A stretch of DNA of 64,000 nt from Chloroflexota bacterium (GTDB taxonomy: Bacteria; Chloroflexota; UBA11872; VXOZ01), in assembly GCA_963662335.2 (NCBI GenBank), contig CAXXVD010000002.1, positions 768,001-832,000 of the forward strand, given 5' to 3'. Below the pieces are notes generated by a model. It saw only the letters and a list, made by a program, of their open reading frames with translations, was not told the DNA's origin and ran no database searches. This document shows positions 18,780 to 33,674 of this stretch, piece after piece. Every line of letters starts with the position of its first letter. Within the stretch, counting starts at the first letter, position 1. The translations under genes and the position numbers were made by a program.

Positions 18780-18928
18780 CCAGCGGCGCAGTTGTTCAGC
18801 GACACTTTCGTTGCTAAAGTATGATGAGCGGGTCGAATGCACTCGCAGAAAGACATTACGTCATCGGATCGACTACAGCAACGAGAGCACTGGCATGAGA
18901 CGAGCGATCCAATGAACAAAGCACTTCT

Positions 18929-19798
18929 ATGCTAACGAAAACCGGAACTGTGACCTACCGTGCTCTCAGCCTGGGTGCAGGCGTGCAGAGTTCTGTGTTG
19001 GCACTTCTTCTGTCCCGATCCGACCCCGGCTTGCTCGAACTTGGCTACCCCAAACCAAATGTCGCCGTGTTTGCCGACACTGGTTGGGAACCAGAGTATG
19101 TTTACCGCCACCTTGACTGGCTTGAAGAGCAACTTGACTATCCGCTAATCCGCGTATCTGATGGCGACATAAAGACAAACCTGAAGCAGGGGCGCACGGT
19201 TTCGGGACACCGGTTTGTGGATGTACCGTTGTTTATGGTGAACCCGGATGGTAAGAAAGGCATGTTGCGGCGGCAGTGTACAAGCCATTATAAGGTTAGA
19301 CCCATCTATCGTGAGATTAGACAGCTTGCAGGTGGACAACGCGGGCGGCCATTCCCAAAAGACACGTACGCTGAAATGTGGCTTGGGATATCTCGGGACG
19401 AGGTGGCGCGTATCAAGCCCAGCCGAGAACCATGGGTTGAACACCGCTGGCCGCTTGTGGAACTTGGTATGTCGCGCCAGGACTGCCTAGAGTGGTTCGC
19501 TTCTGAATACCCGGGCCGTCACCTTCCCCGGTCAGCTTGCGTCATTTGTCCCTATCGCTCGGATGAACACTGGCTGGAACTAAAGCGGTCTGAGCCTGAC
19601 AGTTACAACGAGGCCGTGAAGTTCGATGTATGGCTGCGAAATAGCGCAACGAACCCCGTGAGGGAGATCCTCAACGGCCGTCCGTACCTTCATGCTGCGC
19701 GCCGACCTCTTGCTAGCGTCATCGCTGAACGGGAATCTGATGATTCAGACGCGAACGACTACTTTGTCGAGGAGTGCGAGGGCGTCTGCGGTGTATGA
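18929..19798 (+). CDS. PP-loop / PAPS-reductase-like (adenine nucleotide alpha-hydrolase) Cys-rich protein, putative DNA-modifying enzyme
   Basis: 'SLGAGVQS' PP-loop, 'FADTGWE', 'RQCTSHYK..PI', 'WLGISRDE..R', 'WPL', 'SACVICPY' and C-terminal 'ECEGVCGV'. Confidence 0.8.
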   Translation: MLTKTGTVTYRALSLGAGVQSSVLALLLSRSDPGLLELGYPKPNVAVFADTGWEPEYVYRHLDWLEEQLDYPLIRVSDGDIKTNLKQGRTVSGHRFVDVPLFMVNPDGKKGMLRRQCTSHYKVRPIYREIRQLAGGQRGRPFPKDTYAEMWLGISRDEVARIKPSREPWVEHRWPLVELGMSRQDCLEWFASEYPGRHLPRSACVICPYRSDEHWLELKRSEPDSYNEAVKFDVWLRNSATNPVREILNGRPYLHAARRPLASVIAERESDDSDANDYFVEECEGVCGV

Positions 19799-21053
19799 GG
19801 CGCACACGGAGACGGTTAGCCCCAAGTATTCGCTTCATCCGTACCAGCGGCAGGTGCTGACTGACATCTTGCAGGCCCTGTCATCGCCTGAGCGTCGGGT
19901 CGTTGCGCACTTGCCAACCGGCGCTGGCAAGACGAGAATTGCCGCCCATGCTGCGTGCCGGCTGCTCAACGAGAATGACAACTACGACAAGCGAAGTGAG
20001 GAGCCCCTTGTAATCTGGTCGGCGTCTACAGAGGAGCTTTGCGAACAGGCGGCAGACCAACTTTCAGAGGCGTGGTCGTATCTGGGTTTGCGGGATGCTT
20101 CCATTCACCGCTATTGGGGCAACCGGTCGCTAGACCTGCGGCGACTGTCTTCTGGGTTCTTGGTAACCGGTCTTGCTAAACTGCATTCCGTTGCGTCCCG
20201 AGATAACACACTACTTGCGCACCTGGCCCATTGTACGGCAGGTGTGATCTTTGACGAGGCCCACCAGGCAGTTGCCGAGACCTACGCTTTTGTCACTGAG
20301 CAGCTATGCAGCACGCGGCCGCCTCTCCTCGGCTTGACCGCAACACCGGGGCGCACCGCGAACCTTACGGATGCTGACCATCAGCTTGCCGCTATGTTCG
20401 ATTACAAGAAAGTGTCAATAGACCCTAGAGGACATGAGAGCGCCGTTGCCTACCTCATTCAGAATCGCTACCTGGCTGACACGCGCTTTGTGCCGGTGGA
20501 CTTTGACTCTGATTTTGCAGTCGCAGACCCTCGCCCCGGCCTGGACTATAGTCGGCATGACCTAGCTGAACTGGGCCGCGACGAGCGCCGGACACGTGTG
20601 ATCGCTGAACACGCTATGGGTGCCGTTAGACGGCATCAGCGCACTATTGTGTTCTGCCCCTCGGTGGAGAGCGCACATATGTGCAACCGGCTTCTCTTGG
20701 CTGAGGGCATGGCTACTCACGTGATTACTGCGAAAACGTCCAGCGAGGAACGCCAGGACATCATAGCCACTTTCAAGAGCGACAGTAGGGAGCACATGGT
20801 GTTGTTCAACTACGGCGTGCTTACCGCCGGTTTCGACGCTCCGCGAACTCGTTGTGTCATTATCGCTCGCCCTACCACTTCATTGGTGCTCTATTCGCAA
20901 ATGGCGGGGCGCGCAATGCGCGGCCCTAGAGCCGGCGGCAACCCAAGAGCCGAAATACTCACTGTTGTCGACACGAACCTTCCAGGGTTCGGGTCAGTGA
21001 CCGAGGCGTTCACAAACTGGGAGGAACTATGGAAGACCAACTCGCCGAACTAA
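19791..21053 (+). CDS. SF2 DEAH-box helicase (ResIII-like), no evident nuclease domain
   Basis: 'LHPYQ', 'LPTGAGKT', 'FDEAH', 'GLTATP', 'VFCPSV', 'LTAGFDAP', 'QMAGRAMR'. Likely GTG start at 19791, overlapping the upstream stop. Confidence 0.9.
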   Translation: MYEAHTETVSPKYSLHPYQRQVLTDILQALSSPERRVVAHLPTGAGKTRIAAHAACRLLNENDNYDKRSEEPLVIWSASTEELCEQAADQLSEAWSYLGLRDASIHRYWGNRSLDLRRLSSGFLVTGLAKLHSVASRDNTLLAHLAHCTAGVIFDEAHQAVAETYAFVTEQLCSTRPPLLGLTATPGRTANLTDADHQLAAMFDYKKVSIDPRGHESAVAYLIQNRYLADTRFVPVDFDSDFAVADPRPGLDYSRHDLAELGRDERRTRVIAEHAMGAVRRHQRTIVFCPSVESAHMCNRLLLAEGMATHVITAKTSSEERQDIIATFKSDSREHMVLFNYGVLTAGFDAPRTRCVIIARPTTSLVLYSQMAGRAMRGPRAGGNPRAEILTVVDTNLPGFGSVTEAFTNWEELWKTNSPN

Positions 21054-22891
21054 GAGATGCAGACCGCAGCCTGTTTCCAGGTAGTTTTACAATACGCGCC
21101 ATTAGGGACAGCCGATACCATAGTACCGCATATGCAATTGCCGAGCTTATTGACAACTCAGTCGAAGCAGGGGCGCCTTTAGTCGAACTCTTGTGCATGG
21201 AAGATTCTCAGTTGGCGGAGGTGCGGACTCGGCGACGAGTATCCGAAATTGCAGTCCTAGATAACGGTGAAGGCATGAGCGCAAGAACGTTACTCGACGC
21301 CCTCAAGTTTGGTGGAGGCACTCGGCACGACTCTAATACGGGAATCGGCAAGTACGGCATGGGACTTCCTACTTCTTCAATGTCTCAATGCAAGAAAGTG
21401 GATGTTTGGACTTGGCAGAACGGACTGGATTCTGCATTGCATTCTAGCATTGACGCCGACGAGATTGAGAAAGGAAACCACGAGGTACCTATTCCTAACC
21501 GAGATACTCCAATTCCCGATACATGGAGAAGCGCCGGCAGCGATGAGATATATCGCAGCCGCTCAGGGACCCTTGTCGTATGGAGTAATCTGGACAAGAT
21601 TCAGTGGAAGACTTCTAAGGCAATTATCGAGAACTTGTCCAGGGAGGTTGGGCGCATCCATCGGCATTACATCAATCAAGAAATACATAGGATTCAGGCT
21701 GCATCATTCCTAAAGGATCGGGCTAGCGAACTCAAAAACAGAATACGGATTGTGGCAAACGATCCTCTCTACTTGATGACGCCTTCATCTACTCCAGAGG
21801 GGTGGGATACCAAGGCGATGTTTCGGGAGTGGGGTCCCACTAAAGACTATACGGTCTGGGTGGATGACCGGGAAGCGGTTATTCAGGTGAAATACTCGAT
21901 TGTGAAAGCCGAAGCTTTGAAGACTGATAGTATTTCGCAGCTTCCTGGCAACACTGAACGTGGCAGGCATGCAAGACATAACATTGGCGTGTCGGTCGTG
22001 CGCGAGGATAGAGAGCTAGTGCTTGAAGACGCGTTTCTGAGAGAGGGTGGCAGCACTGAGAACCCGCAAAATCGTTGGTGGGGGTGTGAAGTTCTTTTCT
22101 TTCGCAATTGTGATGAGCTGTTTGGCGTAGACCACAATAAACAGATGGTTGCAAACTTCACGCAAGCGGCAAAGGCTCTCGCTCGAGATGACCGCCCTCA
22201 ACATCGCATACTTGAAGAGATCGGGATCGACGAAAATGACCCGCTATATGCATTGGTGGGTGACATTCGGAACCAGACACGTGCCATGATGCGTGAAATC
22301 GGACAGATGTTTACACAGCGACGAGGGACCCAAGGACCGCGCGGTCGCAGGGGAAGTCCCGAAAAAAAGGCCGCAAGGACGGCTACCGATGCAGACCGAG
22401 ATGCTATGGCTAGCGGTGAAGAAAAGCCGACCGAGACTGACAGAGAACGAATGCAAAAGCCGGCCAATCAGCGAGAAGATGGTCTCAAGGCACAGTTCAT
22501 CTCGTATGGTCAGGCAGAGCAAGATGCCCAGGATCTCGCAAGGATGCTGGTACAGGAGGATCTCTCGTACCAGTTCACCTCAAGAAACCTTCCCGGTTAC
22601 CAGATTTTCAATGTGGAACGAAAGGAGGGTGTCCTTCTAATCGAACTCAATACTGACCATCCAGTCTACGACTTGCTGAGGCATGTTGAAGGTCGACTCG
22701 ACGAGGAAGGTGACGAGAGCGATCCTGCATTCCAATCAATCGTCGCTATCAGACTCTTGTTGTCTTCTTGGGCCCGGATGGAAGACCAGACCGAGTCCGA
22801 TCCCGATCGAAGACACATTCAACACATTGCAATGGATTGGGGACGTCAGGTAGACAAGTTCATTAGTCAACTCCGTGAAAGAGATGGTTAG
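21029..22891 (+). CDS. GHKL (HATPase_c) ATPase, prokaryotic MORC-like
   Basis: Bergerat motifs 'AELIDNSVEA', 'DNGEGM', 'IGKYGMGL', 'GTLVVW'; late 'IELNTDHP'; GAGG RBS; 25-nt overlap with the helicase. Confidence 0.88.
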   Translation: MEDQLAELRDADRSLFPGSFTIRAIRDSRYHSTAYAIAELIDNSVEAGAPLVELLCMEDSQLAEVRTRRRVSEIAVLDNGEGMSARTLLDALKFGGGTRHDSNTGIGKYGMGLPTSSMSQCKKVDVWTWQNGLDSALHSSIDADEIEKGNHEVPIPNRDTPIPDTWRSAGSDEIYRSRSGTLVVWSNLDKIQWKTSKAIIENLSREVGRIHRHYINQEIHRIQAASFLKDRASELKNRIRIVANDPLYLMTPSSTPEGWDTKAMFREWGPTKDYTVWVDDREAVIQVKYSIVKAEALKTDSISQLPGNTERGRHARHNIGVSVVREDRELVLEDAFLREGGSTENPQNRWWGCEVLFFRNCDELFGVDHNKQMVANFTQAAKALARDDRPQHRILEEIGIDENDPLYALVGDIRNQTRAMMREIGQMFTQRRGTQGPRGRRGSPEKKAARTATDADRDAMASGEEKPTETDRERMQKPANQREDGLKAQFISYGQAEQDAQDLARMLVQEDLSYQFTSRNLPGYQIFNVERKEGVLLIELNTDHPVYDLLRHVEGRLDEEGDESDPAFQSIVAIRLLLSSWARMEDQTESDPDRRHIQHIAMDWGRQVDKFISQLRERDG

Positions 22892-22893
22892 TC

Positions 22894-23748
22894 GTGTCGT
22901 ATACCCACGGCGACTTGCTGGGAAGCCTTTGTGCCGGCGCGCAGCGCTTGATCATTGCAGCACCTTACATCAAGACTTATGCACTTGCTAGACTATTGGC
23001 AGAACTTGACCCACTGGCAACCCTAATTTGCGTTACGCGGTGGAACCCACACGACCTTGCCGTCGGTGCTTCCGATGCAGACTGTCGCGCTATAGTCTTG
23101 CGGCGGGGTGGATCCTTCAGACTGCATCCCTCCCTGCACGCCAAGTACTACCGTATTGATGACGTGGTTCTCATTGGCTCCGCGAATCTCACGGCTTCTG
23201 CATTAGGCTGGTCCGCACAACCAAACTTGGAGATTCTTTGCCGTGCCGTTGACAACTTTGACGCAAGCGCATTCCAGCAAGAATTGATGGACGGCTCGCG
23301 AGAGATTACTGACGAAGAATTCGCGTATTGGGAGTCGATTTCAAAGATCACGGCCCCAACTAACCAGCCAATTGCTGGCGGTCAGCCTGTGCTTGAAACG
23401 TGGAGACCTTCAACACGCGACCCGAGAAACGTAGAACTTGCCTATCAAGGCAGAGAAGACGACATAGCCTCACTTGATGAACAGAGTGCGGCGCAAAGGG
23501 ACATCCAAGCCCTTTTGATACCGCCGGGTCTGAACGATGAGCAGGTTCGTGCATGGGCATCGGGCTGCTTGCTCGCCGCCCCTTTTGCCAACTCCGTGAT
23601 GCGGCTGCATGGTATAGATACGCCAACCGCCTCCCGCATACTCGCCGAGAACTATAGCATCAACATTACCGAGGCGAGAAGAGACATGGAAACCGTGCAG
23701 AACTGGCTGGCGTTTCTCGCCCCGGAGGCCACCTCAAAGCTCCCTTGA
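22894..23748 (+). CDS. Phospholipase D-family (single HKD) nuclease-like protein
   Basis: 'IAAPYIK' and 'LHAKYYRIDD..LIGSANLT' (HxKxxxxD..GSxN); starts 2 nt after the ATPase stop. Confidence 0.85.
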   Translation: MSYTHGDLLGSLCAGAQRLIIAAPYIKTYALARLLAELDPLATLICVTRWNPHDLAVGASDADCRAIVLRRGGSFRLHPSLHAKYYRIDDVVLIGSANLTASALGWSAQPNLEILCRAVDNFDASAFQQELMDGSREITDEEFAYWESISKITAPTNQPIAGGQPVLETWRPSTRDPRNVELAYQGREDDIASLDEQSAAQRDIQALLIPPGLNDEQVRAWASGCLLAAPFANSVMRLHGIDTPTASRILAENYSINITEARRDMETVQNWLAFLAPEATSKLP

Positions 23749-23794
23749 GATGCGGTGAGCTTGTCTCTTACGCACCCAACAAGCTATTCCACTG

Positions 23795-24940
23795 TCAAAT
23801 GTCCATCACCGCCCCCGTATCGTCCCGCAGGTTCTTGAAGTAGGAAAAACTGCGCGGCGGGTTGGCGGCGATGACTTCCTCGTTCAGGTCTACGCCCAGG
23901 CCGGGCGAGTCGGGGACGTGGAGGTAGCCGTTCTGAATGGGCCAGGGCTGTTTCAGCACCCGGTCGCGGTAGGGTTGGCTGGGCACGTATTCCAACAGGT
24001 GGAAGTTGGGGACGCTCATGCCGATGTGGGCCGCGGCGGCGGTGGAGACCGGCCCCATGGGGTTGTGGGGCGCTACGAGCACGTGATGCACCTCGGCGAG
24101 CGCCGCGATCTTCTTCACCTCGGTAATGCCGCCGGCGTGGCAGAGGTCCGGCTGGATCACGTCCACGTACTGGCCCGCCAGCAGGGGCGCGAACTGCCAC
24201 TTGGTGAAGTAGCGTTCGCCGGTGGCCAGGTCGATGCCCAGTTCGCGGGCAGTCTCGGTCACAGGCCGAAAGGCTTCGATATTGTCCGGCGGCACCGGCT
24301 CCTCGAAGAACGTGATGCGGCTATCCCGCACGGCGTGCAGTTGGCGCACGGCCTGGGCCGGACGGCTCTTGCCGTGGTTGTCGAGCATGATGTCCACGTC
24401 CCGCCCGACGGCCTGGCGCAGGATGGCGATGCGTTCCCCCAAGAGCGCGGCGGCCTGATGGTCGCCCATGGGCGCGTCGGTAGCCCACGCGCCGGTCTTG
24501 AGCGCGGTGAAACCGGCGCCCACGAGTTGCGCCGCTTCCCGCGCGATGCGGTCGGCTTCGTAGATGCCGACGTGGGTGTAGAGGCGAATGCGGTCGCGGG
24601 CGGGCCCGCCGAGCAGATGGTAGACCGGCGCGCCGTAATGCTTGCCCTTGATGTCCCACAAGGCCTGGTCGATGCCCGCAATGGCGGTGCTGATGACCAC
24701 GCCGCCCTTCCAGAAGCCGTCCCGGTAGAGCGACTGCCAGAGACGCTCGGTCTCCAACGGGTCCTTGCCAATGAGCGCCTCGCCAAGCTGCCCAACCGCC
24801 GCCCGCACCGTGGCGTCCTTGCCTTCCAAGGTGGCCTCGCCCCAGCCGTAAAGCTCCGGCTCGTCGGTGGAAATCTTGACAAACACCCAATTGCGCGGGT
24901 CGCCCCACATGATGAAGGTGTCTACTGCGGTGATGCGCAC
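23795..24940 (-). CDS. Mandelate racemase/enolase superfamily dehydratase (galactonate dehydratase-like)
   Basis: 'GWGEA', 'AGIDQALWDIKGK', 'DNHG', 'FFEEP', 'ATGER', 'QPDLCHAGG', 'APHNP'; GTG start after AAGGAG. Confidence 0.9.
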   Translation of the reverse strand: MRITAVDTFIMWGDPRNWVFVKISTDEPELYGWGEATLEGKDATVRAAVGQLGEALIGKDPLETERLWQSLYRDGFWKGGVVISTAIAGIDQALWDIKGKHYGAPVYHLLGGPARDRIRLYTHVGIYEADRIAREAAQLVGAGFTALKTGAWATDAPMGDHQAAALLGERIAILRQAVGRDVDIMLDNHGKSRPAQAVRQLHAVRDSRITFFEEPVPPDNIEAFRPVTETARELGIDLATGERYFTKWQFAPLLAGQYVDVIQPDLCHAGGITEVKKIAALAEVHHVLVAPHNPMGPVSTAAAAHIGMSVPNFHLLEYVPSQPYRDRVLKQPWPIQNGYLHVPDSPGLGVDLNEEVIAANPPRSFSYFKNLRDDTGAVMDI

Positions 24941-25030: not shown

Positions 25031-27283
25031 TTACTTGAATCGCTGGCCGATGTATTCTAAGGCCATCTTGAGCGGTAGTTCAGTTGTAGAAGGGCCGGTA
25101 CGAACGTAGAACCGTTCGTCGTTGCCATCCGTTACGTAAACAGGGGCCCGGGATGCCTCGCAGCGAACGACCAAGACACGCCCCCCTTCGAAGTCGTCAA
25201 AATTGGCGTGCATGAACGCCCAGACACTCGCTCCCATTCTCTCATTCACGATGTTGACCAGATGCAGACCCATGCGGTCCTCATTTGAAAAGCCGTCATC
25301 CTTCAAGCCAAGAGGCGAGCCGTCGTCAGCGACGCCAATGAGCAGCGTGCCGCCGCTCTTGTTTAGGAACCCGGCTAAAGTCTTGAGCGCCGACAGTTCA
25401 ATTCGGCTATCCCGCTTGCCTGTGTGGAGATTGACGCGGAGCGTCGACTTGAATTCGACTAAGTCGGATTCCCCGCCTGCTATCAGACTCTCCAGGTCGA
25501 TTGCATCAGTCTCGTCCTCAACGCCTATCGGTGTTGCAAGTTGCTGATACCCTTCTCGCATTATTTGCGCGATCAACTCCCGGCGTTTTCCTAAGAAAGC
25601 CCAATAATCCATGCTTTCCCAGCCGTCGGGCAGCCCATGGCGCACGTACATGTGTGCTAACGCCTCTTCGCAGAATCGTTCCCGCATAGGCGGCAGGTAC
25701 TCCTGCGGGGATTGAGCGGACATCCTTGCGTTATCCGTCCACTCCACGTAAGCATAATTGGCAATCTGATTGACGTCTCTTGTCGCTGTTATGCCGTTTT
25801 GCGCCAGATGGCCCCTTGGAAACAGATGGTGTCGCTCTATACTTCTGTGGCCGCCCCGCCAAGCAGGATCCAGCATTTCCGATATAGAAAATTCGGAGAA
25901 GAGAACTGGAGCATCCAGCAGGACCAGTGAAGCTTCGAACGCAAAGAGCGATGGACTGCGGGCAGAAGAGGTCGCGAGTTCACTTGGCAGCGTCACTTCC
26001 CAGAAGTCAGTGGTAAGTGTCACGTTGCATGTTTGATGAAGCTTGGCTGCGAACTCGTCAGCCGACTTAACTCCCCGCAACATTGCCAGATCGGACTCCA
26101 TCCGAGACTCCGGTGAGCCTGTGTAGCGGCCGGTCACGGCGGACATGAAGAACCACTGGGCGATGACCTGCCGGAGCGCGTGTTCTTCCATGCCAAGTTC
26201 TGTTTTACCAATCAAGTAAAGGATGTACGAATAGAGTAGCGCGGTCTGAGAGCTTATCATTCGGCGCGAACGGTAGCCGGCCCTTCTCAGACAGTGCATG
26301 AAGTCGTGCCAGTTCTGCAGGTTCAGCACTTTCGATTGGGCGTCTCTCAGCCGCTCGAACTGGTCGTCCCGCCGCTCTTCGCTGAACTCTCCAGATTCCA
26401 AGTCCTTCCCGCGCAATATCGAGTACACGTGTTCCAGCCTGGCTCGTTTGAATGCCAGCCCTACCCCCACACGAAGCATCTGATCAGGAGAGGGTTCAAT
26501 GAAGTGATTGTGCGGCGACGGCTCGCCGGTTGTTGGCGTACGGGCCTCTCTGCAGAAGCGTTCTAACTCAGTTCTCCCCTCATCCCAAAAGACTGACATA
26601 AGCGTGAGGATAAAGTCCGCCTGGTTGAGCGTCTTGCCCTGGCTATTGATCCTGACAAAGACTTCCGCAACCGCTTCCTCCGACGTTTCAGCGGATAGTT
26701 GGAGTGCGGTGAAGGGAAACCCGACCAGGCCTTGGAGCTTCGTGATGGCCGCTCGGATCGACCTGACCTCTTGGCTGGACAGTTCCCGCGCGGAGCGAAG
26801 CCCACTGAGATAGTCGTCTGCAACCTGGAACAGATCGGTCTCGTCGCTCCATAGCCGTGAAATGTCCGGGATGAATGACCTGTCGCGTTCAATCGCAGCG
26901 CTGGTCACCTCGAACACCTCTTCCATGGGGTTGAAGGCGATGCGGATGCGCTCGCTTCGGTAATTACTGCGAACGACGGTGGCTCCTTTGATTACGGCGA
27001 AGAGTGAGGTCAATCTCTGCTGACCATCGACGATGACCAAGCTAGGCGCGAGTTGTTTGGCATCCGAACCGATTGCCCTGTGCCCGGAGAGCAGCCCGTT
27101 TTGCCAGAAGAGCAGATACCCCACCGGATATCCCCGGTACATGGAGTCGAATAAGTCGCGGACTTTCGTGTTAGGCCAGACGAACGGCCGCTGAATGTCC
27201 GGCAGCCCAATCTGTCCCATGTCGATGTCATTGACGAGCTTCTCTAATGGAAATGTCACTTGTGCGAAGGCCGTCTTGCTCAT
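25031..27283 (-). CDS. GmrSD-type (DUF262 + DUF1524/HNH) restriction nuclease with C-terminal AlbA_2/Schlafen domain
   Basis: 'IQRPFVW', 'VDGQQRLT', 'FVRINSQG' (DUF262); 'HHLFP..NQIAN...DN' (DUF1524); 'GESDLVEFKS..AGFLNKSGGTLLIGVADDG..YVRTGPST' (AlbA_2). Confidence 0.85.
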   Translation of the reverse strand: MSKTAFAQVTFPLEKLVNDIDMGQIGLPDIQRPFVWPNTKVRDLFDSMYRGYPVGYLLFWQNGLLSGHRAIGSDAKQLAPSLVIVDGQQRLTSLFAVIKGATVVRSNYRSERIRIAFNPMEEVFEVTSAAIERDRSFIPDISRLWSDETDLFQVADDYLSGLRSARELSSQEVRSIRAAITKLQGLVGFPFTALQLSAETSEEAVAEVFVRINSQGKTLNQADFILTLMSVFWDEGRTELERFCREARTPTTGEPSPHNHFIEPSPDQMLRVGVGLAFKRARLEHVYSILRGKDLESGEFSEERRDDQFERLRDAQSKVLNLQNWHDFMHCLRRAGYRSRRMISSQTALLYSYILYLIGKTELGMEEHALRQVIAQWFFMSAVTGRYTGSPESRMESDLAMLRGVKSADEFAAKLHQTCNVTLTTDFWEVTLPSELATSSARSPSLFAFEASLVLLDAPVLFSEFSISEMLDPAWRGGHRSIERHHLFPRGHLAQNGITATRDVNQIANYAYVEWTDNARMSAQSPQEYLPPMRERFCEEALAHMYVRHGLPDGWESMDYWAFLGKRRELIAQIMREGYQQLATPIGVEDETDAIDLESLIAGGESDLVEFKSTLRVNLHTGKRDSRIELSALKTLAGFLNKSGGTLLIGVADDGSPLGLKDDGFSNEDRMGLHLVNIVNERMGASVWAFMHANFDDFEGGRVLVVRCEASRAPVYVTDGNDERFYVRTGPSTTELPLKMALEYIGQRFK

Positions 27284-27595
27284 TGCAATTGCTCTCCGTG
27301 GCTTGCAGGACAATGATAGTCAAGGAAGTCGCAAGCACGCATGGGCCTTTCACCCGCCAATCCAAGCACTTGATGCCTGCCCATTCTCGTGACCTTCCTG
27401 CTTGCTCAATCCTATGTACGGGTACTTTGGCAGTCCTGGGATCCACTCCGGGAACTGAAACCAAAGCGGCGTGCACCCCGCAGTGAAATCCAGGTACTAT
27501 TGCCACGCACACTCCAGACTACTCGCTTGCGCGCGGCCTGGTCTAGCAGCGTTGCGTGACCTTGCAAAGACTCATGTCGAGCGGCAATCGAACTC

Positions 27596-31310: not shown

Positions 31311-31943
31311 TCACAGCGCCTGCAGGAATCTTTTCAGCGGATCATAGACCGGCGATTCTAGGCACCAGTGCCCGGCTTCAGTTGCTTCTCCAACGCGTAG
31401 CTCAGGTTTAGATCGGGAAGCCAAGAAGGCATACGCCCGTGCCTTGTCAGAAATGCAATGTGACACTCCTGCGGTCTCTTTTAAGCATTGCACGTATTGC
31501 TTCACACACTGTATGGCAGGATCACACGCTACTGCCGAAAGACAAAGCGTCTCGAGTGTCCCTGGACTCGCGCAGTCCGGCAGGACATAGACCCCAACTC
31601 GCGGCCTGCCCTGCGTCACAACCATTGGAGCATTCGGTGCGCCCAAGCCAGCATTCTTAAGCAAGCCGCGTACCGACTGAAATGCCTGTGATGAAGATTT
31701 GTCCGCGTCGCGCGTAACCCCAATTGATTCTAAAGTAGGGTACTCCGGCCTGACAGGCAACGCACGCAAAACTCTCTTGAGGTTGCCTATTCCCTTGAAA
31801 TTGGCGACTTGAACGGGATCTGAAGTGTCCAACTCATCAAGGAGAAATCGAAAGAATCGATACTCACTCTCTCCTTCCACCAAAAGCAACTTTGGCAGTA
31901 CGATTTCGATATGGTCTTCGCTACCTTGTACGGACATTGCCAC
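31311..31943 (-). CDS. DUF3226 / TOPRIM-like protein
   Basis: 'LLVEGESE', 'RDAD' (DxD), 'GTLETLCL', 'KARAYAFLA'; coupled to the upstream ATPase; more AT-rich than the host. Confidence 0.75.
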   Translation of the reverse strand: MAMSVQGSEDHIEIVLPKLLLVEGESEYRFFRFLLDELDTSDPVQVANFKGIGNLKRVLRALPVRPEYPTLESIGVTRDADKSSSQAFQSVRGLLKNAGLGAPNAPMVVTQGRPRVGVYVLPDCASPGTLETLCLSAVACDPAIQCVKQYVQCLKETAGVSHCISDKARAYAFLASRSKPELRVGEATEAGHWCLESPVYDPLKRFLQAL

Positions 31944-33046
31944 TAGCGCACCTCGAAGTTGAATTCTATGGAAGTTTCCAGTTGCTCTTGGTCGTATGTT
32001 ATCGCGACAATCTCTCCGTCCCGCTGTTCCAGACGGTGCAGGCGGAAGTCGTCATCATCGCCATCCGCAAAGGCCCTTTGGGCCGCTTTCACACATTCCC
32101 AACTATGTGTGGTGGCGATCACCTGGACATTCGACTCCCGCGCCGCGACATCGACCGCCTTCCATACGTCCACGAGCGCCGAGTAGTGCAGTCCGTTCTC
32201 GATCTCGTCGATGAGCACGGTACCGGTCTCATTCGTCATGATCACCAACAGCCATGAGAGGACGCGGGCAATTCCCTCTCCCATGTGTAGAAGTGGCATG
32301 AGAGGGACGGTACCGACATCGGCGTGAAAAATCGGCATGTTCGTACGATAGAGCAAGTCTAGACGCTGAATGCGGGGGTCCAGCGCCTGCAAGGCAGGCA
32401 GTACATCTGCATCTCGACCTGTTTCAACCAAAGCGCTGTACTGTTCAGCGTAGGCCTCTGGGAACCGCGGGTAATTCAAGATGAGAATTGCGGGCACGTA
32501 CGGGTTGACATTCGACGACGAAAACTTGATTTCAAATGGGTCACCAGTCGTTGAGGAGGATTTTGTCTCAGAGGGAGTCAATCGCGCAGAAGACGTGAAG
32601 ACTTGCCCCTGGCTGTCCTCGTAGTCGAGAACCAACTCATTGGGGGAAACAACGCCCGCGCCAATCTGTAGTTCAGACTTGAGCGCGCCATTCGCTTCGG
32701 TCGGGAAAAGGGACCGCTCTTCTGGCTGTGCGAGTCTAACCTGCAACGCGCCTTTCCCTGCCCGGTCGTGAACACTCATGAGTTCAATAACTGCGTCCGA
32801 CTGCTTGGCGTAGAAGAGCCAGTCAAGCTCTCTCCAGTGGGCCGCACTGCTGTTTCCAACCCCACGGAGAAGGTTTGCGGTGAAAATTCTTTCCGGTGTG
32901 CTTGGGGCACTATGGGCATTGAGTGCCTCAAGTAGGGCCGTCTTGCCTACATTGTTCTTGCCCGCTATGAGATTTACTCTTGCCAGCGGTTGGATTTCAA
33001 AGTCTTGGAAGCAGCGGAAATTCCTCGCTGCGAATTTGCGGAACAT
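31943..33046 (-). CDS. AAA_15/AAA_21 ABC-type ATPase
   Basis: 'NFRCF', 'GKNNVGKT', 'MGEG' signature, 'LIDEIENGLH', 'ATTHS'; true start at ATG 33046. Confidence 0.88.
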   Translation of the reverse strand: MFRKFAARNFRCFQDFEIQPLARVNLIAGKNNVGKTALLEALNAHSAPSTPERIFTANLLRGVGNSSAAHWRELDWLFYAKQSDAVIELMSVHDRAGKGALQVRLAQPEERSLFPTEANGALKSELQIGAGVVSPNELVLDYEDSQGQVFTSSARLTPSETKSSSTTGDPFEIKFSSSNVNPYVPAILILNYPRFPEAYAEQYSALVETGRDADVLPALQALDPRIQRLDLLYRTNMPIFHADVGTVPLMPLLHMGEGIARVLSWLLVIMTNETGTVLIDEIENGLHYSALVDVWKAVDVAARESNVQVIATTHSWECVKAAQRAFADGDDDDFRLHRLEQRDGEIVAITYDQEQLETSIEFNFEVR

Positions 33047-33080
33047 CACGTCTCCTCCAGATCGGACGCGATTGCTTCGT

Positions 33081-33674
33081 TTATTCCAATGAGCCCTTGC
33101 TGCTCGGCACGCCCTGTTGTCGGCGGGGATCGGGTTGCACCGCCTGTGCCAGGGCGCGGGCGAGGGCTTTGAAGGCCGCCTCGGCCTTGTGGTGGTCGTT
33201 TGCGCCGGCCAGCAGGCGGACGTGGAGCGTGAAATGTCCCTGCACGGCGAAGGTCTCCAGGAAGTGGCTGAGCATCTCGCTTTGCAGCGCGCCCAGCTTA
33301 TAGCCGGTGAGCGGCAGGTCGATCGTCGCGCCGCCGCGGCCGCTGAGGTCAACGGCAACCTGCGCCAGGGCTTCGTCCAGGGGCACGAGCGCCCAGCCCA
33401 TGCGTGTGATGCCGGCTTTGTCGCCCAAAGCCGCGTCCAGCGCGCGTCCCAGGCAGATGGCCACGTCTTCCACGGTGTGGTGGGAGTCCACTTCCAGGTC
33501 GCCAGTGGCGCGCACCGCCAAATCGAAGAGGCCGTGCGTGCTGAGTTGACTCAGCATGTGGTCGAACATGCCGATGCCGGTGGCGATCTCCGCCTGGCCG
33601 CTGCCGTCGAGCGTCAGCGTAACGGCCACGTCGGTCTCGCGGGTGCGGCGGGCGTGTTGTCCGGTGCGTTTCAT
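33081..33674 (-). CDS. hisB: Imidazoleglycerol-phosphate dehydratase
   Basis: 'RRTRETDV', 'FDHML', 'HHTVED', 'PLDEAL', 'NDHHKAEA.FKA', 'PSSKG'. Confidence 0.97.
   Translation of the reverse strand: MKRTGQHARRTRETDVAVTLTLDGSGQAEIATGIGMFDHMLSQLSTHGLFDLAVRATGDLEVDSHHTVEDVAICLGRALDAALGDKAGITRMGWALVPLDEALAQVAVDLSGRGGATIDLPLTGYKLGALQSEMLSHFLETFAVQGHFTLHVRLLAGANDHHKAEAAFKALARALAQAVQPDPRRQQGVPSSKGSLE

Follow-up and report, generated by a model that had tools for sequence, protein, structure and literature searches.

An SspD-like, phage-type PP-loop enzyme at the head of a putative restriction-modification-like cassette in a Chloroflexota bacterium

The cassette, its site and its relatives

We analysed a stretch of 64,000 nucleotides from a Chloroflexota bacterium (assembly GCA_963662335.2, contig CAXXVD010000002.1, positions 768,001 to 832,000), hereafter the window, around a gene for a compact PP-loop enzyme with the fold of phosphoadenosine phosphosulfate (PAPS) reductases. 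This gene is the first of four that lie head to tail within ~5 kb, where it is followed by genes for a superfamily 2 (SF2) helicase, a GHKL ATPase and a phospholipase D (PLD) nuclease. We refer to the four genes as the cassette and to the last three as the trio.

18929..19798, forward strand: SspD-like, phage-type PP-loop (PAPS-reductase-fold) enzyme; ATG start, 289 amino acids (aa); loop SLGAGVQSS; Cys117/186/204/207; terminal dyad Cys283/287
19791..21053, forward strand: SF2 helicase/translocase (ResIII and Helicase_C); about 420 aa from a GTG; Walker A GAGKT and DEAH invariant
21029..22891, forward strand: GHKL ATPase (HATPase_c_3, MORC/MzaB-like); 620 aa; HATPase_c_3 3e-21, MzaB 3.2e-13
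22894..23748, forward strand: PLD/HKD nuclease; 284 aa; N-domain with invariant H82 and K84; helical C-terminal domain, residues 166-284
18780..23801, no strand: inserted low-GC segment between the oppF-like stop and the MR_MLE gene; site empty (184 bp) in a congener

An earlier reading made from the letters alone (the sequence-only reading) likened the enzyme to the stand-alone phage or prophage type, but the gene is not solitary here: the GTG of the helicase at 19791 overlaps the stop of the enzyme gene by 8 nt, in GTGTATGA, and the enzyme is translationally coupled to a restriction-like helicase-GHKL-PLD module. The helicase matches the profiles of PbeA (7e-20), of a type IV restriction model (mREase_IV, 5.7e-12) and of the Dnd-system restriction enzyme TIGR04095 (1.3e-8), and its matches in the PDB are RadD (1.7e-18) and the SauUSI entry 7clg (1.5e-7). 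The GHKL protein has no sequence match in the PDB, and its C-terminal ~450 aa match no family. In the predicted model of the PLD protein (predicted local distance difference test, pLDDT, 91.6), the N-domain is matched structurally by SauUSI (Z 15.7, root-mean-square deviation (rmsd) 2.3, 140 residues aligned), BfiI (12.9), Nuc (12.7) and NgoAVII-R (11.3), and the protein matches the PADLOC profile DrmC (1.7e-7). A role of its C-domain in sensing sulfur or another modification was considered and not adopted, the only matches being too low in Z (BrxA 5.4, SspB 4.7). By its domains, the trio looks like a nucleoside triphosphate-dependent HKD-plus-SF2 restriction enzyme that has been split into separate genes, with a GHKL ATPase added.

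Prediction of a complex between the helicase and the enzyme gave no answer (score 0.00 against a mark of 0.32) and speaks neither for nor against binding. Pfam and PADLOC scans of the window found no gene for DndD, DndE, SspB (DUF4007) or SspC, and promoter and terminator counts were not above those of shuffles.

The GC content of the cassette is 0.544, against 0.647 for the opp operon on its left and 0.664 for the MR_MLE gene on its right. A contiguous match across the cassette was found in two of 17 genomes of the genus, namely the window's own genome, which is counted among the 17, and G278 (77% DNA identity). Where the cassette is missing, the gap between oppF and the MR_MLE gene measures 184 bp (G214) or about 218 bp (G170). 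The low GC content, the empty site in a congener and the presence in 2/17 genomes show that the cassette was inserted, and we regard it as a mobile unit. Target-site duplications and terminal inverted repeats were sought at its borders and none was convincing, and no integrase gene lies in the cassette. The oppF/MR_MLE site itself is variable and not reserved for defence: a defence hot spot was considered and rejected, since the site holds genes for PQQ-like beta-propeller repeat proteins, which are not defence genes, in G197 (locus L128, 749 aa), G080 (L129, 1053 aa) and G134 (L130, 383 aa).

Relatives of the enzyme were compared at 80 loci kept from contigs of one genome per species, all of which entered the trees (FastTree and IQ-TREE quick); three mobile-element proteins and, as outgroup, five of 13 SspD proteins were added. 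At 31 of the 80 loci the enzyme is 64-87% identical to that of the window. The helicase, GHKL and PLD genes follow directly downstream in 26 of these 31, while three loci are cut by the contig end and two hold fragments only; PDC-M33A/B and DUF6339 occur in none (0/31). Together with the window, the 31 loci form one clade (FastTree support 99), and IQ-TREE quick places the window in sets of this class only. According to the record titles the clade covers seven phyla (Chloroflexota, Latescibacterota, Rhodothermota, Pseudomonadota, Binatota, Acidobacteriota and Gemmatimonadota), a spread from which we conclude that it has moved horizontally. Signs of decay are seen in some cassettes: an internal stop interrupts the PLD frame in L011, the GHKL gene is cut to its first 154 aa in L014 and the helicase to aa 7-133 in L019; L005 aligns only from aa 148 of the GHKL protein and L028 only from aa 112 of the helicase.

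In a sister class of 34 loci (41-51% identity) the gene product, about 540 aa long, joins DUF6339 to a C-terminal enzyme domain, and the gene sits behind two others that match PDC-M33A (1e-87) and PDC-M33B (6e-33) of a PADLOC candidate system. Its further partners, mostly downstream, are the trio at four loci, bona fide SspE at two (E 9e-240), DndB-like genes at four and GmrSD-like proteins at 11 (one kind in seven, the other in five, both in one). A DndD/PbeC-like gene (cluster c14) was met at only three loci, all of this class. PDC-M33A/B were considered as divergent SspBC and rejected: against the up- and downstream neighbours of 13 canonical SspD, hhalign gave a best E of 0.16. In the third class, with 11 loci, a stand-alone enzyme gene precedes genes for a GIY-YIG and a DndB-family protein (Pfam DndB 1.6e-32), and the remaining 4/80 loci have none of these partners.

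Copies in phages stand alone, as in Thermus phage P23-77 (17 kb), where the gene lies beside a replication gene, and in Pelagibacter phage HTVC034P, where it lies beside recombination genes; the plasmid pTiC58 likewise carries a lone copy, directly after ArdC. At the pTiC58 locus (L127, NC_003065.3, 4956-5891) the tblastn match runs ~20 nt past the end of the annotated coding sequence, whose product lacks the Cys tail (...LDLWPI), and related Agrobacterium plasmids match in two pieces, which suggests that the C-terminus is frameshifted or mis-annotated in some Ti-plasmid copies.

Cysteines, family and nucleotide loop of the enzyme

The Cys motifs pointed out in the sequence-only reading are all present in the 289-aa translation, as RRQCT (C117), RQDC (C186), SACVICPY (C204, C207) and a terminal ECEGVCGV (C283, C287). 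Close homologues are 73-91% identical and 287-289 aa long; of 6984 candidates, 5437 proteins passed E <= 0.001. When 1.84 billion cluster representatives were searched with the family profile, 4695 reached E <= 0.001 and at least 1498 (50%-identity clusters) E <= 1e-30. All six Cys are invariant in an alignment of 25 close homologues. In 100 representatives from the profile search that are 38-56% identical to the window protein (the diverse relatives), C117, C204, C207 and C287 are kept in 100/100, C283 in 99/100 and C186 in 97/100. The terminal pattern C-x3-C-G-x$ occurs in 120/120 close homologues and in 124/150 cluster representatives; 13 further representatives of the 150 have a different terminal di-Cys, and most of the remainder are fragments. 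The most frequent C-terminal ending in the family is ECEGMCGV. This conservation is far beyond chance, and the Cys motifs are hallmarks of the family.

For comparison we assembled reference sets from genomes of the same phylum, consisting of 8 DndC (above the TIGR03183 cut-off), 13 canonical SspD (374-439 bits, PADLOC) and 10 adenosine phosphosulfate (APS) reductases. The conserved Cys are arranged as follows.

Enzyme family: C117 (RxCT), C186, C204/C207 (CxxC), C283/C287 (terminal)
SspD: C92 (RWCT), C177/C180 (CxxC), C275/C278 (terminal CxxC)
DndC: C133 (RWCT), C237, C248, C255/C258 (CxxC)
APS reductase: C132/C133 (CC), C216/C219 (CxxC), C244 (ECGMH)

The partners of C117 in hhalign are the Cys of RWCT in SspD and in DndC and, in APS reductase, the leading Cys of the CC pair. 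C204 and C207 line up with the CxxC cysteines of all three. The spacing from the first Cys to the CxxC is 87 in the enzyme family, 85 in SspD, 84 in APS reductase and 122 in DndC. C186 lies 18 residues upstream of the CxxC, as does C237 of DndC, and a relaxed hhalign run pairs the two with low confidence. The tails differ: the enzyme family ends in ECEGxCG[VIL], SspD in an acidic stretch followed by CxxCHL (...DDEDD..C..CHL) and APS reductase in ECG(M/L)H. In the 10 APS reductases the ending is KECG(M/L)H, whereas ECEGVCGV of the enzyme has two Cys and no His and is therefore not the ECG(L/M)H catalytic tail of CysH.

These layouts bear on two proposals of the sequence-only reading. Its Fe-S Cys set is borne out as an alignment with the cluster cysteines of SspD, DndC and APS reductase, by analogy with which C117, C204 and C207 would hold an Fe-S cluster. 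Its C-terminal Cys tail is a conserved hallmark with parallels in CxxCHL of SspD and ECG(M/L)H of APS reductase, and it is a reasonable inference that the dyad, which follows an acidic disordered linker, would shuttle sulfur. The available text of PMC10853773 describes for DndC a 4Fe-4S centre on three Cys and a separate Cys dyad that likely takes sulfur from DndA and relays it to DNA.

With the single sequence, Pfam gave PAPS_reduct (PF01507) alone, at 19.6 bits against a cut-off of 22.5, and no NCBIfam family was matched. Among the PADLOC defence models only SspD was matched (1.5e-12, 45.8 bits, model positions 4-200 of 277); the canonical SspD of the phylum sample (n=22) score 365-439 bits on the same model, about eight times as much. 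The PHROGs family phrog_424, 'phosphoadenosine phosphosulfate reductase', is matched at E 1.3e-42 (residues 11-289, profile positions 163-412 of 460), and the nearest ESM Atlas clusters are 64-67% viral; both results uphold the earlier assignment to a compact phage or prophage type. The short length, which had been offered as a mark of this type, does separate the enzyme from DndC, but canonical SspD is equally short (266-291 aa as trimmed).

In profile-profile comparison, the family profile aligned with SspD (n=13) at a probability of 99.5% and E 9e-23 over 215 columns, with DndC (n=8) at E 0.0097 in the N-terminal half only, and with APS reductase (n=10) at E 1e-4 over 87 columns. Because the profile comparison favours SspD over DndC and APS reductase, we place the enzyme, on sequence grounds, in an unnamed, phage-rich sister family of SspD (phrog_424); it is not a canonical SspD, DndC or CysH.

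The AlphaFold2 model of the enzyme (100-row alignment) has a mean pLDDT of 93.4, with tail residues 271-289 disordered. Foldseek placed TtuA and CysH on top (E 5e-5 to 1e-4, template modelling score about 0.4). In an exhaustive VIA-align search PAPS/APS reductases led, with 7rge at Z 12.1 (rmsd 3.7, 166 aligned), 6vpu at 11.0 and 2goy and 7lhr at 10.9, followed by NcsA, TilS, LarE and TtuA at Z 9.6-10.7; the reductase matches (Z 10.9-12.1) agree with the PP-loop fold proposed earlier. A PDB sequence search with the enzyme alone gave just a chance match to WhiB7 (E 0.97). The only solved chain touched by the family profile, weakly (E 0.0053), is 21fy_C ('PptA', 270 aa); the alignment spans the CxxC region (CVGC in PptA), so that PptA may be a solved relative, and literature searches on it returned nothing relevant. 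One family member (P0255, from an L255-type locus, 397 aa) carries an N-terminal ArsR/MarR-type winged-helix DNA-binding domain (HTH_5 1.5e-7), which fits a DNA-directed function.

The nucleotide loop departs from that of DndC and SspD, a point that the sequence-only reading does not mention. It reads SLGAGVQSS, of which G16, G18, Q20 and S21 are kept in 100/100 diverse relatives, and the family pattern is S-L-G-[AG]-G-V-Q-S-[ST] (GxGxQS), with an invariant Gln at the position of Asp and a Val at that of Lys in SGGKDS. This loop is kept in 84/84 family rows of the tree set, phage and plasmid copies included. The 8 DndC and 13 SspD have SGGKDS, except for one SLGKDS (a DndC) and one SGGRDS. The enzyme therefore does not match the SGGxDS loop typical of the PP-loop ATP pyrophosphatase superfamily, despite its PP-loop/PAPS-reductase-like fold. 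The loop of E. coli CysH, an enzyme that hydrolyses no ATP, likewise contains a Gln. Because Gln and Val replace the loop Asp and Lys, an ATP-pyrophosphatase or adenylation step is less secure than family membership would imply. Of the adenylation that the sequence-only reading carried over from TtuA and TtcA, the PP-loop fold holds and the step itself is uncertain.

Possible roles of the enzyme

We hypothesize, with moderate confidence, that the enzyme marks DNA as one subunit of a mobile defence cassette of four genes with a restriction-modification-like plan, and that the mark is most likely a phosphorothioate. The data establish the fold, the family placement, the conservation of the Cys and of the cassette, its insertion and horizontal spread, and the lack of a sulfate-assimilation context; from these we infer a cluster, a relay of sulfur, the kind of mark, the self/non-self logic and action without a DndD/SspC/BrxC-type partner. 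C117, C204 and C207 would bind a [4Fe-4S] cluster, in which C186 might be a fourth ligand, or C186 might take part in the relay. The enzyme would activate a DNA phosphate with a nucleotide and exchange the activated oxygen for sulfur, which would arrive as a persulfide on the flexible dyad C283/C287 after loading by a housekeeping cysteine desulfurase. The mark would exempt host DNA from the helicase-GHKL-PLD machine, which would translocate on unmarked invader DNA and cut it.

Phosphorothioation is favoured because of the homology to SspD and because sister clades have SspE and DndB-like neighbours. Across the loci, the enzyme behaves as a portable 'modification' gene, to judge from its contexts: it is combined with interchangeable nuclease modules in cells and stands alone in mobile elements. 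The sequence-only reading supposed that it may work without DndA and DndD. The second half agrees with the neighbourhood, in which no DndD/DndE or SspB/SspC gene was found; as to the first, the genome has 12 Aminotran_5 matches (best 2e-157) that could supply sulfur, and nothing therefore points to independence from a DndA-type desulfurase.

Several points weigh against a phosphorothioating self-marking subunit. The Pfam score lies below its cut-off and NCBIfam offers no match; with Gln and Val at the positions of Asp and Lys in SGGKDS, the enzyme need not be an active ATP pyrophosphatase; and the tail that would carry sulfur is disordered in the AlphaFold2 model. The link to phosphorothioation is indirect: SspE and DndB neighbours are confined to sister clades (0/31 loci of the window clade). 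The PDC-M33A/B partners are unlike the neighbours of canonical SspD. SauUSI, which the nuclease resembles most in structure, is a modification-dependent enzyme that cuts modified DNA, so that self and non-self could be told apart the other way round. No experiment on any member of the enzyme family was found in the literature. Finally, in the available text of PMC12914056, phosphorothioate synthesis by Dnd, Ssp and BREX type 4 is stated to need a PAPS-reductase-domain protein plus an NTPase, and one isolate that lacks dndD but has a PAPS-reductase gene next to an ATPase showed no detectable phosphorothioate. On the other side, TdpC, the single reported exception to this requirement, is a precedent, tdpC alone being sufficient for phosphorothioate synthesis in the Tdp system (PMC12914056). 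The enzyme family may be self-sufficient, as TdpC is, or else the enzyme may be served by the ATPases of the cassette.

A bolder version of the first option is that the whole family is a self-sufficient DNA sulfurtransferase. Relying on a Gln-type, CysH-like loop and on a sulfur shuttle of its own, the C-terminal Cys dyad, it would place a phosphorothioate or an undescribed sulfur mark on DNA with no nickase, NTPase or dedicated desulfurase, and would serve as a one-gene anti-restriction cloak in mobile elements and as a 'self' stamp in cassettes. We offer this extension tentatively and doubt it more than we believe it.

A marking subunit might also write something other than phosphorothioate, such as a thiolated or substituted base or another phosphate adduct, by a chemistry unlike that of DndC and SspD. 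The invariant Gln of the GxGxQS loop, set against the SGGKDS-type loop of the 8 DndC and 13 SspD, would suit this idea, as would the lack of an NCBIfam model for the family, the absence of a DndD/SspC/BrxC-type partner and the presence of the base- or cofactor-thiolating PP-loop enzymes TtuA, NcsA, LarE and YcfA among the structural neighbours; other modifications by some Dnd-like systems are considered in the available text of PMC10853773. Nevertheless, SspD is the closest detectable family, three core Cys plus a Cys dyad are also what is described for DndC, and sister clades are paired with DndB-like genes and with SspE, a phosphorothioate-sensing effector according to the available text of PMC8092258. 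We judge a mark of another kind unlikely.

Less probable still is that the enzyme does not mark self DNA at all and is an accessory or effector of the trio, for instance one that works on nucleotides or on the DNA of invaders or that senses sulfur or the redox state, or else a captured phage or plasmid anti-restriction gene. The stand-alone phage copies and the ArdC-adjacent copy of pTiC58 do look like counter-restriction genes, the cassette has two ATPases of its own, and SauUSI, as noted, cuts modified DNA. Yet the enzyme is kept ahead of the trio, with an 8-nt overlap, in 26/31 loci, and the trio also stands behind the PDC-M33 enzyme module (4 loci), in a slot that is elsewhere filled by SspE or GmrSD-like nucleases, which is a modification-plus-restriction layout.

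That the enzyme is an assimilatory PAPS/APS reductase (CysH), which would suit its being the only PF01507-like sequence in a 96%-complete genome, its nearest solved folds and its EC..G-type tail, is very unlikely and can be excluded for practical purposes, in agreement with the sequence-only reading: Pfam, NCBIfam and the weak hhalign result (E 1e-4, 87 columns, with SspD closer) oppose it, the gene lies in a low-GC insert present in 2/17 genus genomes and is coupled to the genes of the trio, and ATP sulfurylase (PF01747), CysD and sulfite reductase (PF01077, NIR_SIR) were not found in the genome. Nor did this genome yield a second PF01507 protein, a DndC or, at E <= 1e-30, a TIGR02055 match, although its incompleteness means that these searches are no proof of absence.

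Members of this very large enzyme family are common in phages and plasmids, and across at least seven phyla the enzyme is fixed ahead of a portable restriction module. If one 289-aa protein does write a sulfur mark, this would account for many phage 'PAPS reductase' genes and provide a minimal tool for site-specific modification of the DNA backbone, and the four-gene cassette would enter the catalogue as an unnamed defence system. With its non-canonical nucleotide loop, the enzyme poses a question about the chemistry of activation that can be put to a direct test.

Two other loci of the window also resemble defence genes. Just past the MR_MLE gene, at 25031-27313 on the reverse strand, lies a gene (GC 0.557) for a 760-aa protein with GmrSD_N (DUF262, 4.4e-31), a C-terminal Schlafen/AlbA_2 domain (7e-16) and a PADLOC match to HEC-05 (3.1e-36). 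Among the matches listed there is none in the 16 other genus genomes, nor is there one in the syntenic locus L001, and the gene is probably a second, separate defence insertion. A candidate AbiL/PDC-M38-type defence pair lies at 31311-33358, also on the reverse strand, where the GC content is lower (0.595-0.63); it consists of an AAA_15/AAA_21 ATPase (471 aa; AbiLi 2.5e-55, PDC-M38A 9.3e-52) and a DUF3226 protein (210 aa; PDC-M38B 8.2e-14).

Comparison with known systems

No model set of PADLOC-DB v2 corresponds to the cassette. We found no description of it in the literature searched, which included the available text, supplements not covered, of PMC2292703, PMC10853773, PMC12839542, PMC12914056 and PMC12707154; the terms 'MORC' and 'GHKL' do not occur in the available text of PMC10853773, and no literature on DUF6339 was found.

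SspD is the nearest known relative. It is of similar size; an RxCT Cys and a CxxC are common to both proteins, as is a terminal Cys dyad that an acidic linker precedes, and relatives of the enzyme are paired with SspE. However, the enzyme scores 45.8 bits on the SspD model against 365-439, has GxGxQS in place of SGGKDS and a CxxxCG[VIL] in place of a CxxCHL tail, and carries the additional conserved C186; no SspB or SspC lies nearby, and its partner module is helicase-GHKL-PLD. The phage and plasmid members of phrog_424 share the loop, the Cys set and the tail (P23-77 ORF3 ends in DCSGICGV, HTVC034P gp12 in ECEGMCGV), but these copies stand alone, presumably to protect the DNA of their element, whereas the window gene is fixed ahead of a restriction-like trio. 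In PDC-M33 the sister clade of the enzyme (41-51% identity) forms the C-terminal domain of the DUF6339 fusion, and four loci have the same trio; the window clade lacks M33A, M33B and DUF6339 in 31/31 loci.

The TdpABC system was reportedly described by An et al. (2025, Nat Chem Biol). Its member TdpC offers a parallel in logic in that one PAPS-reductase-type gene makes up the whole modification module beside a restriction module, according to the available text of PMC12914056; the comparison is by description. The family profile and the restriction partners match no Tdp-named PDB chain. With DndC, an Fe-S protein according to the available text of PMC10853773, the enzyme shares the PP-loop/PAPS-reductase fold, the RWCT-type Cys, the CxxC and a Cys 18 residues before the CxxC. 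It differs in having no TIGR03183 (DNA_S_dndC) match at E <= 0.01, in being about 200 aa shorter, in lacking SGGKDS and a DndD/DndE neighbour, and in aligning over the N-terminal half alone (E 0.0097), while DndC has no terminal dyad.

APS reductase and CysH provide the best solved-structure matches (Z 10.9-12.1), an aligned first cluster Cys and a flexible Cys-bearing tail, but the enzyme falls below the Pfam cut-off, no pathway was found in the genome and its context is that of a defence island. BrxP of BREX type 4 is marked, in the available text of PMC12914056 and PMC12839542, by a DUF4007 fusion and by the neighbours BrxC, PglZ and BrxL; the enzyme is a single-domain protein of 289 aa, and Pfam and PADLOC found none of these in the cassette.

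On the restriction side, SauUSI, PbeA and NgoAVII/CglI likewise have a PLD/HKD nuclease working with an SF2 translocase, PbeA being an HKD-SF2 fusion downstream of Dnd modification genes (PMC10853773, available text). In the cassette, the nuclease and the helicase are encoded by separate genes, with a GHKL ATPase between them. We regard the cassette as probably an unnamed phosphorothioation-type restriction-modification system, and the Gln-type loop and the ECEGxCG tail are, by sequence, the two distinctive features that set its enzyme family apart from SspD and DndC.

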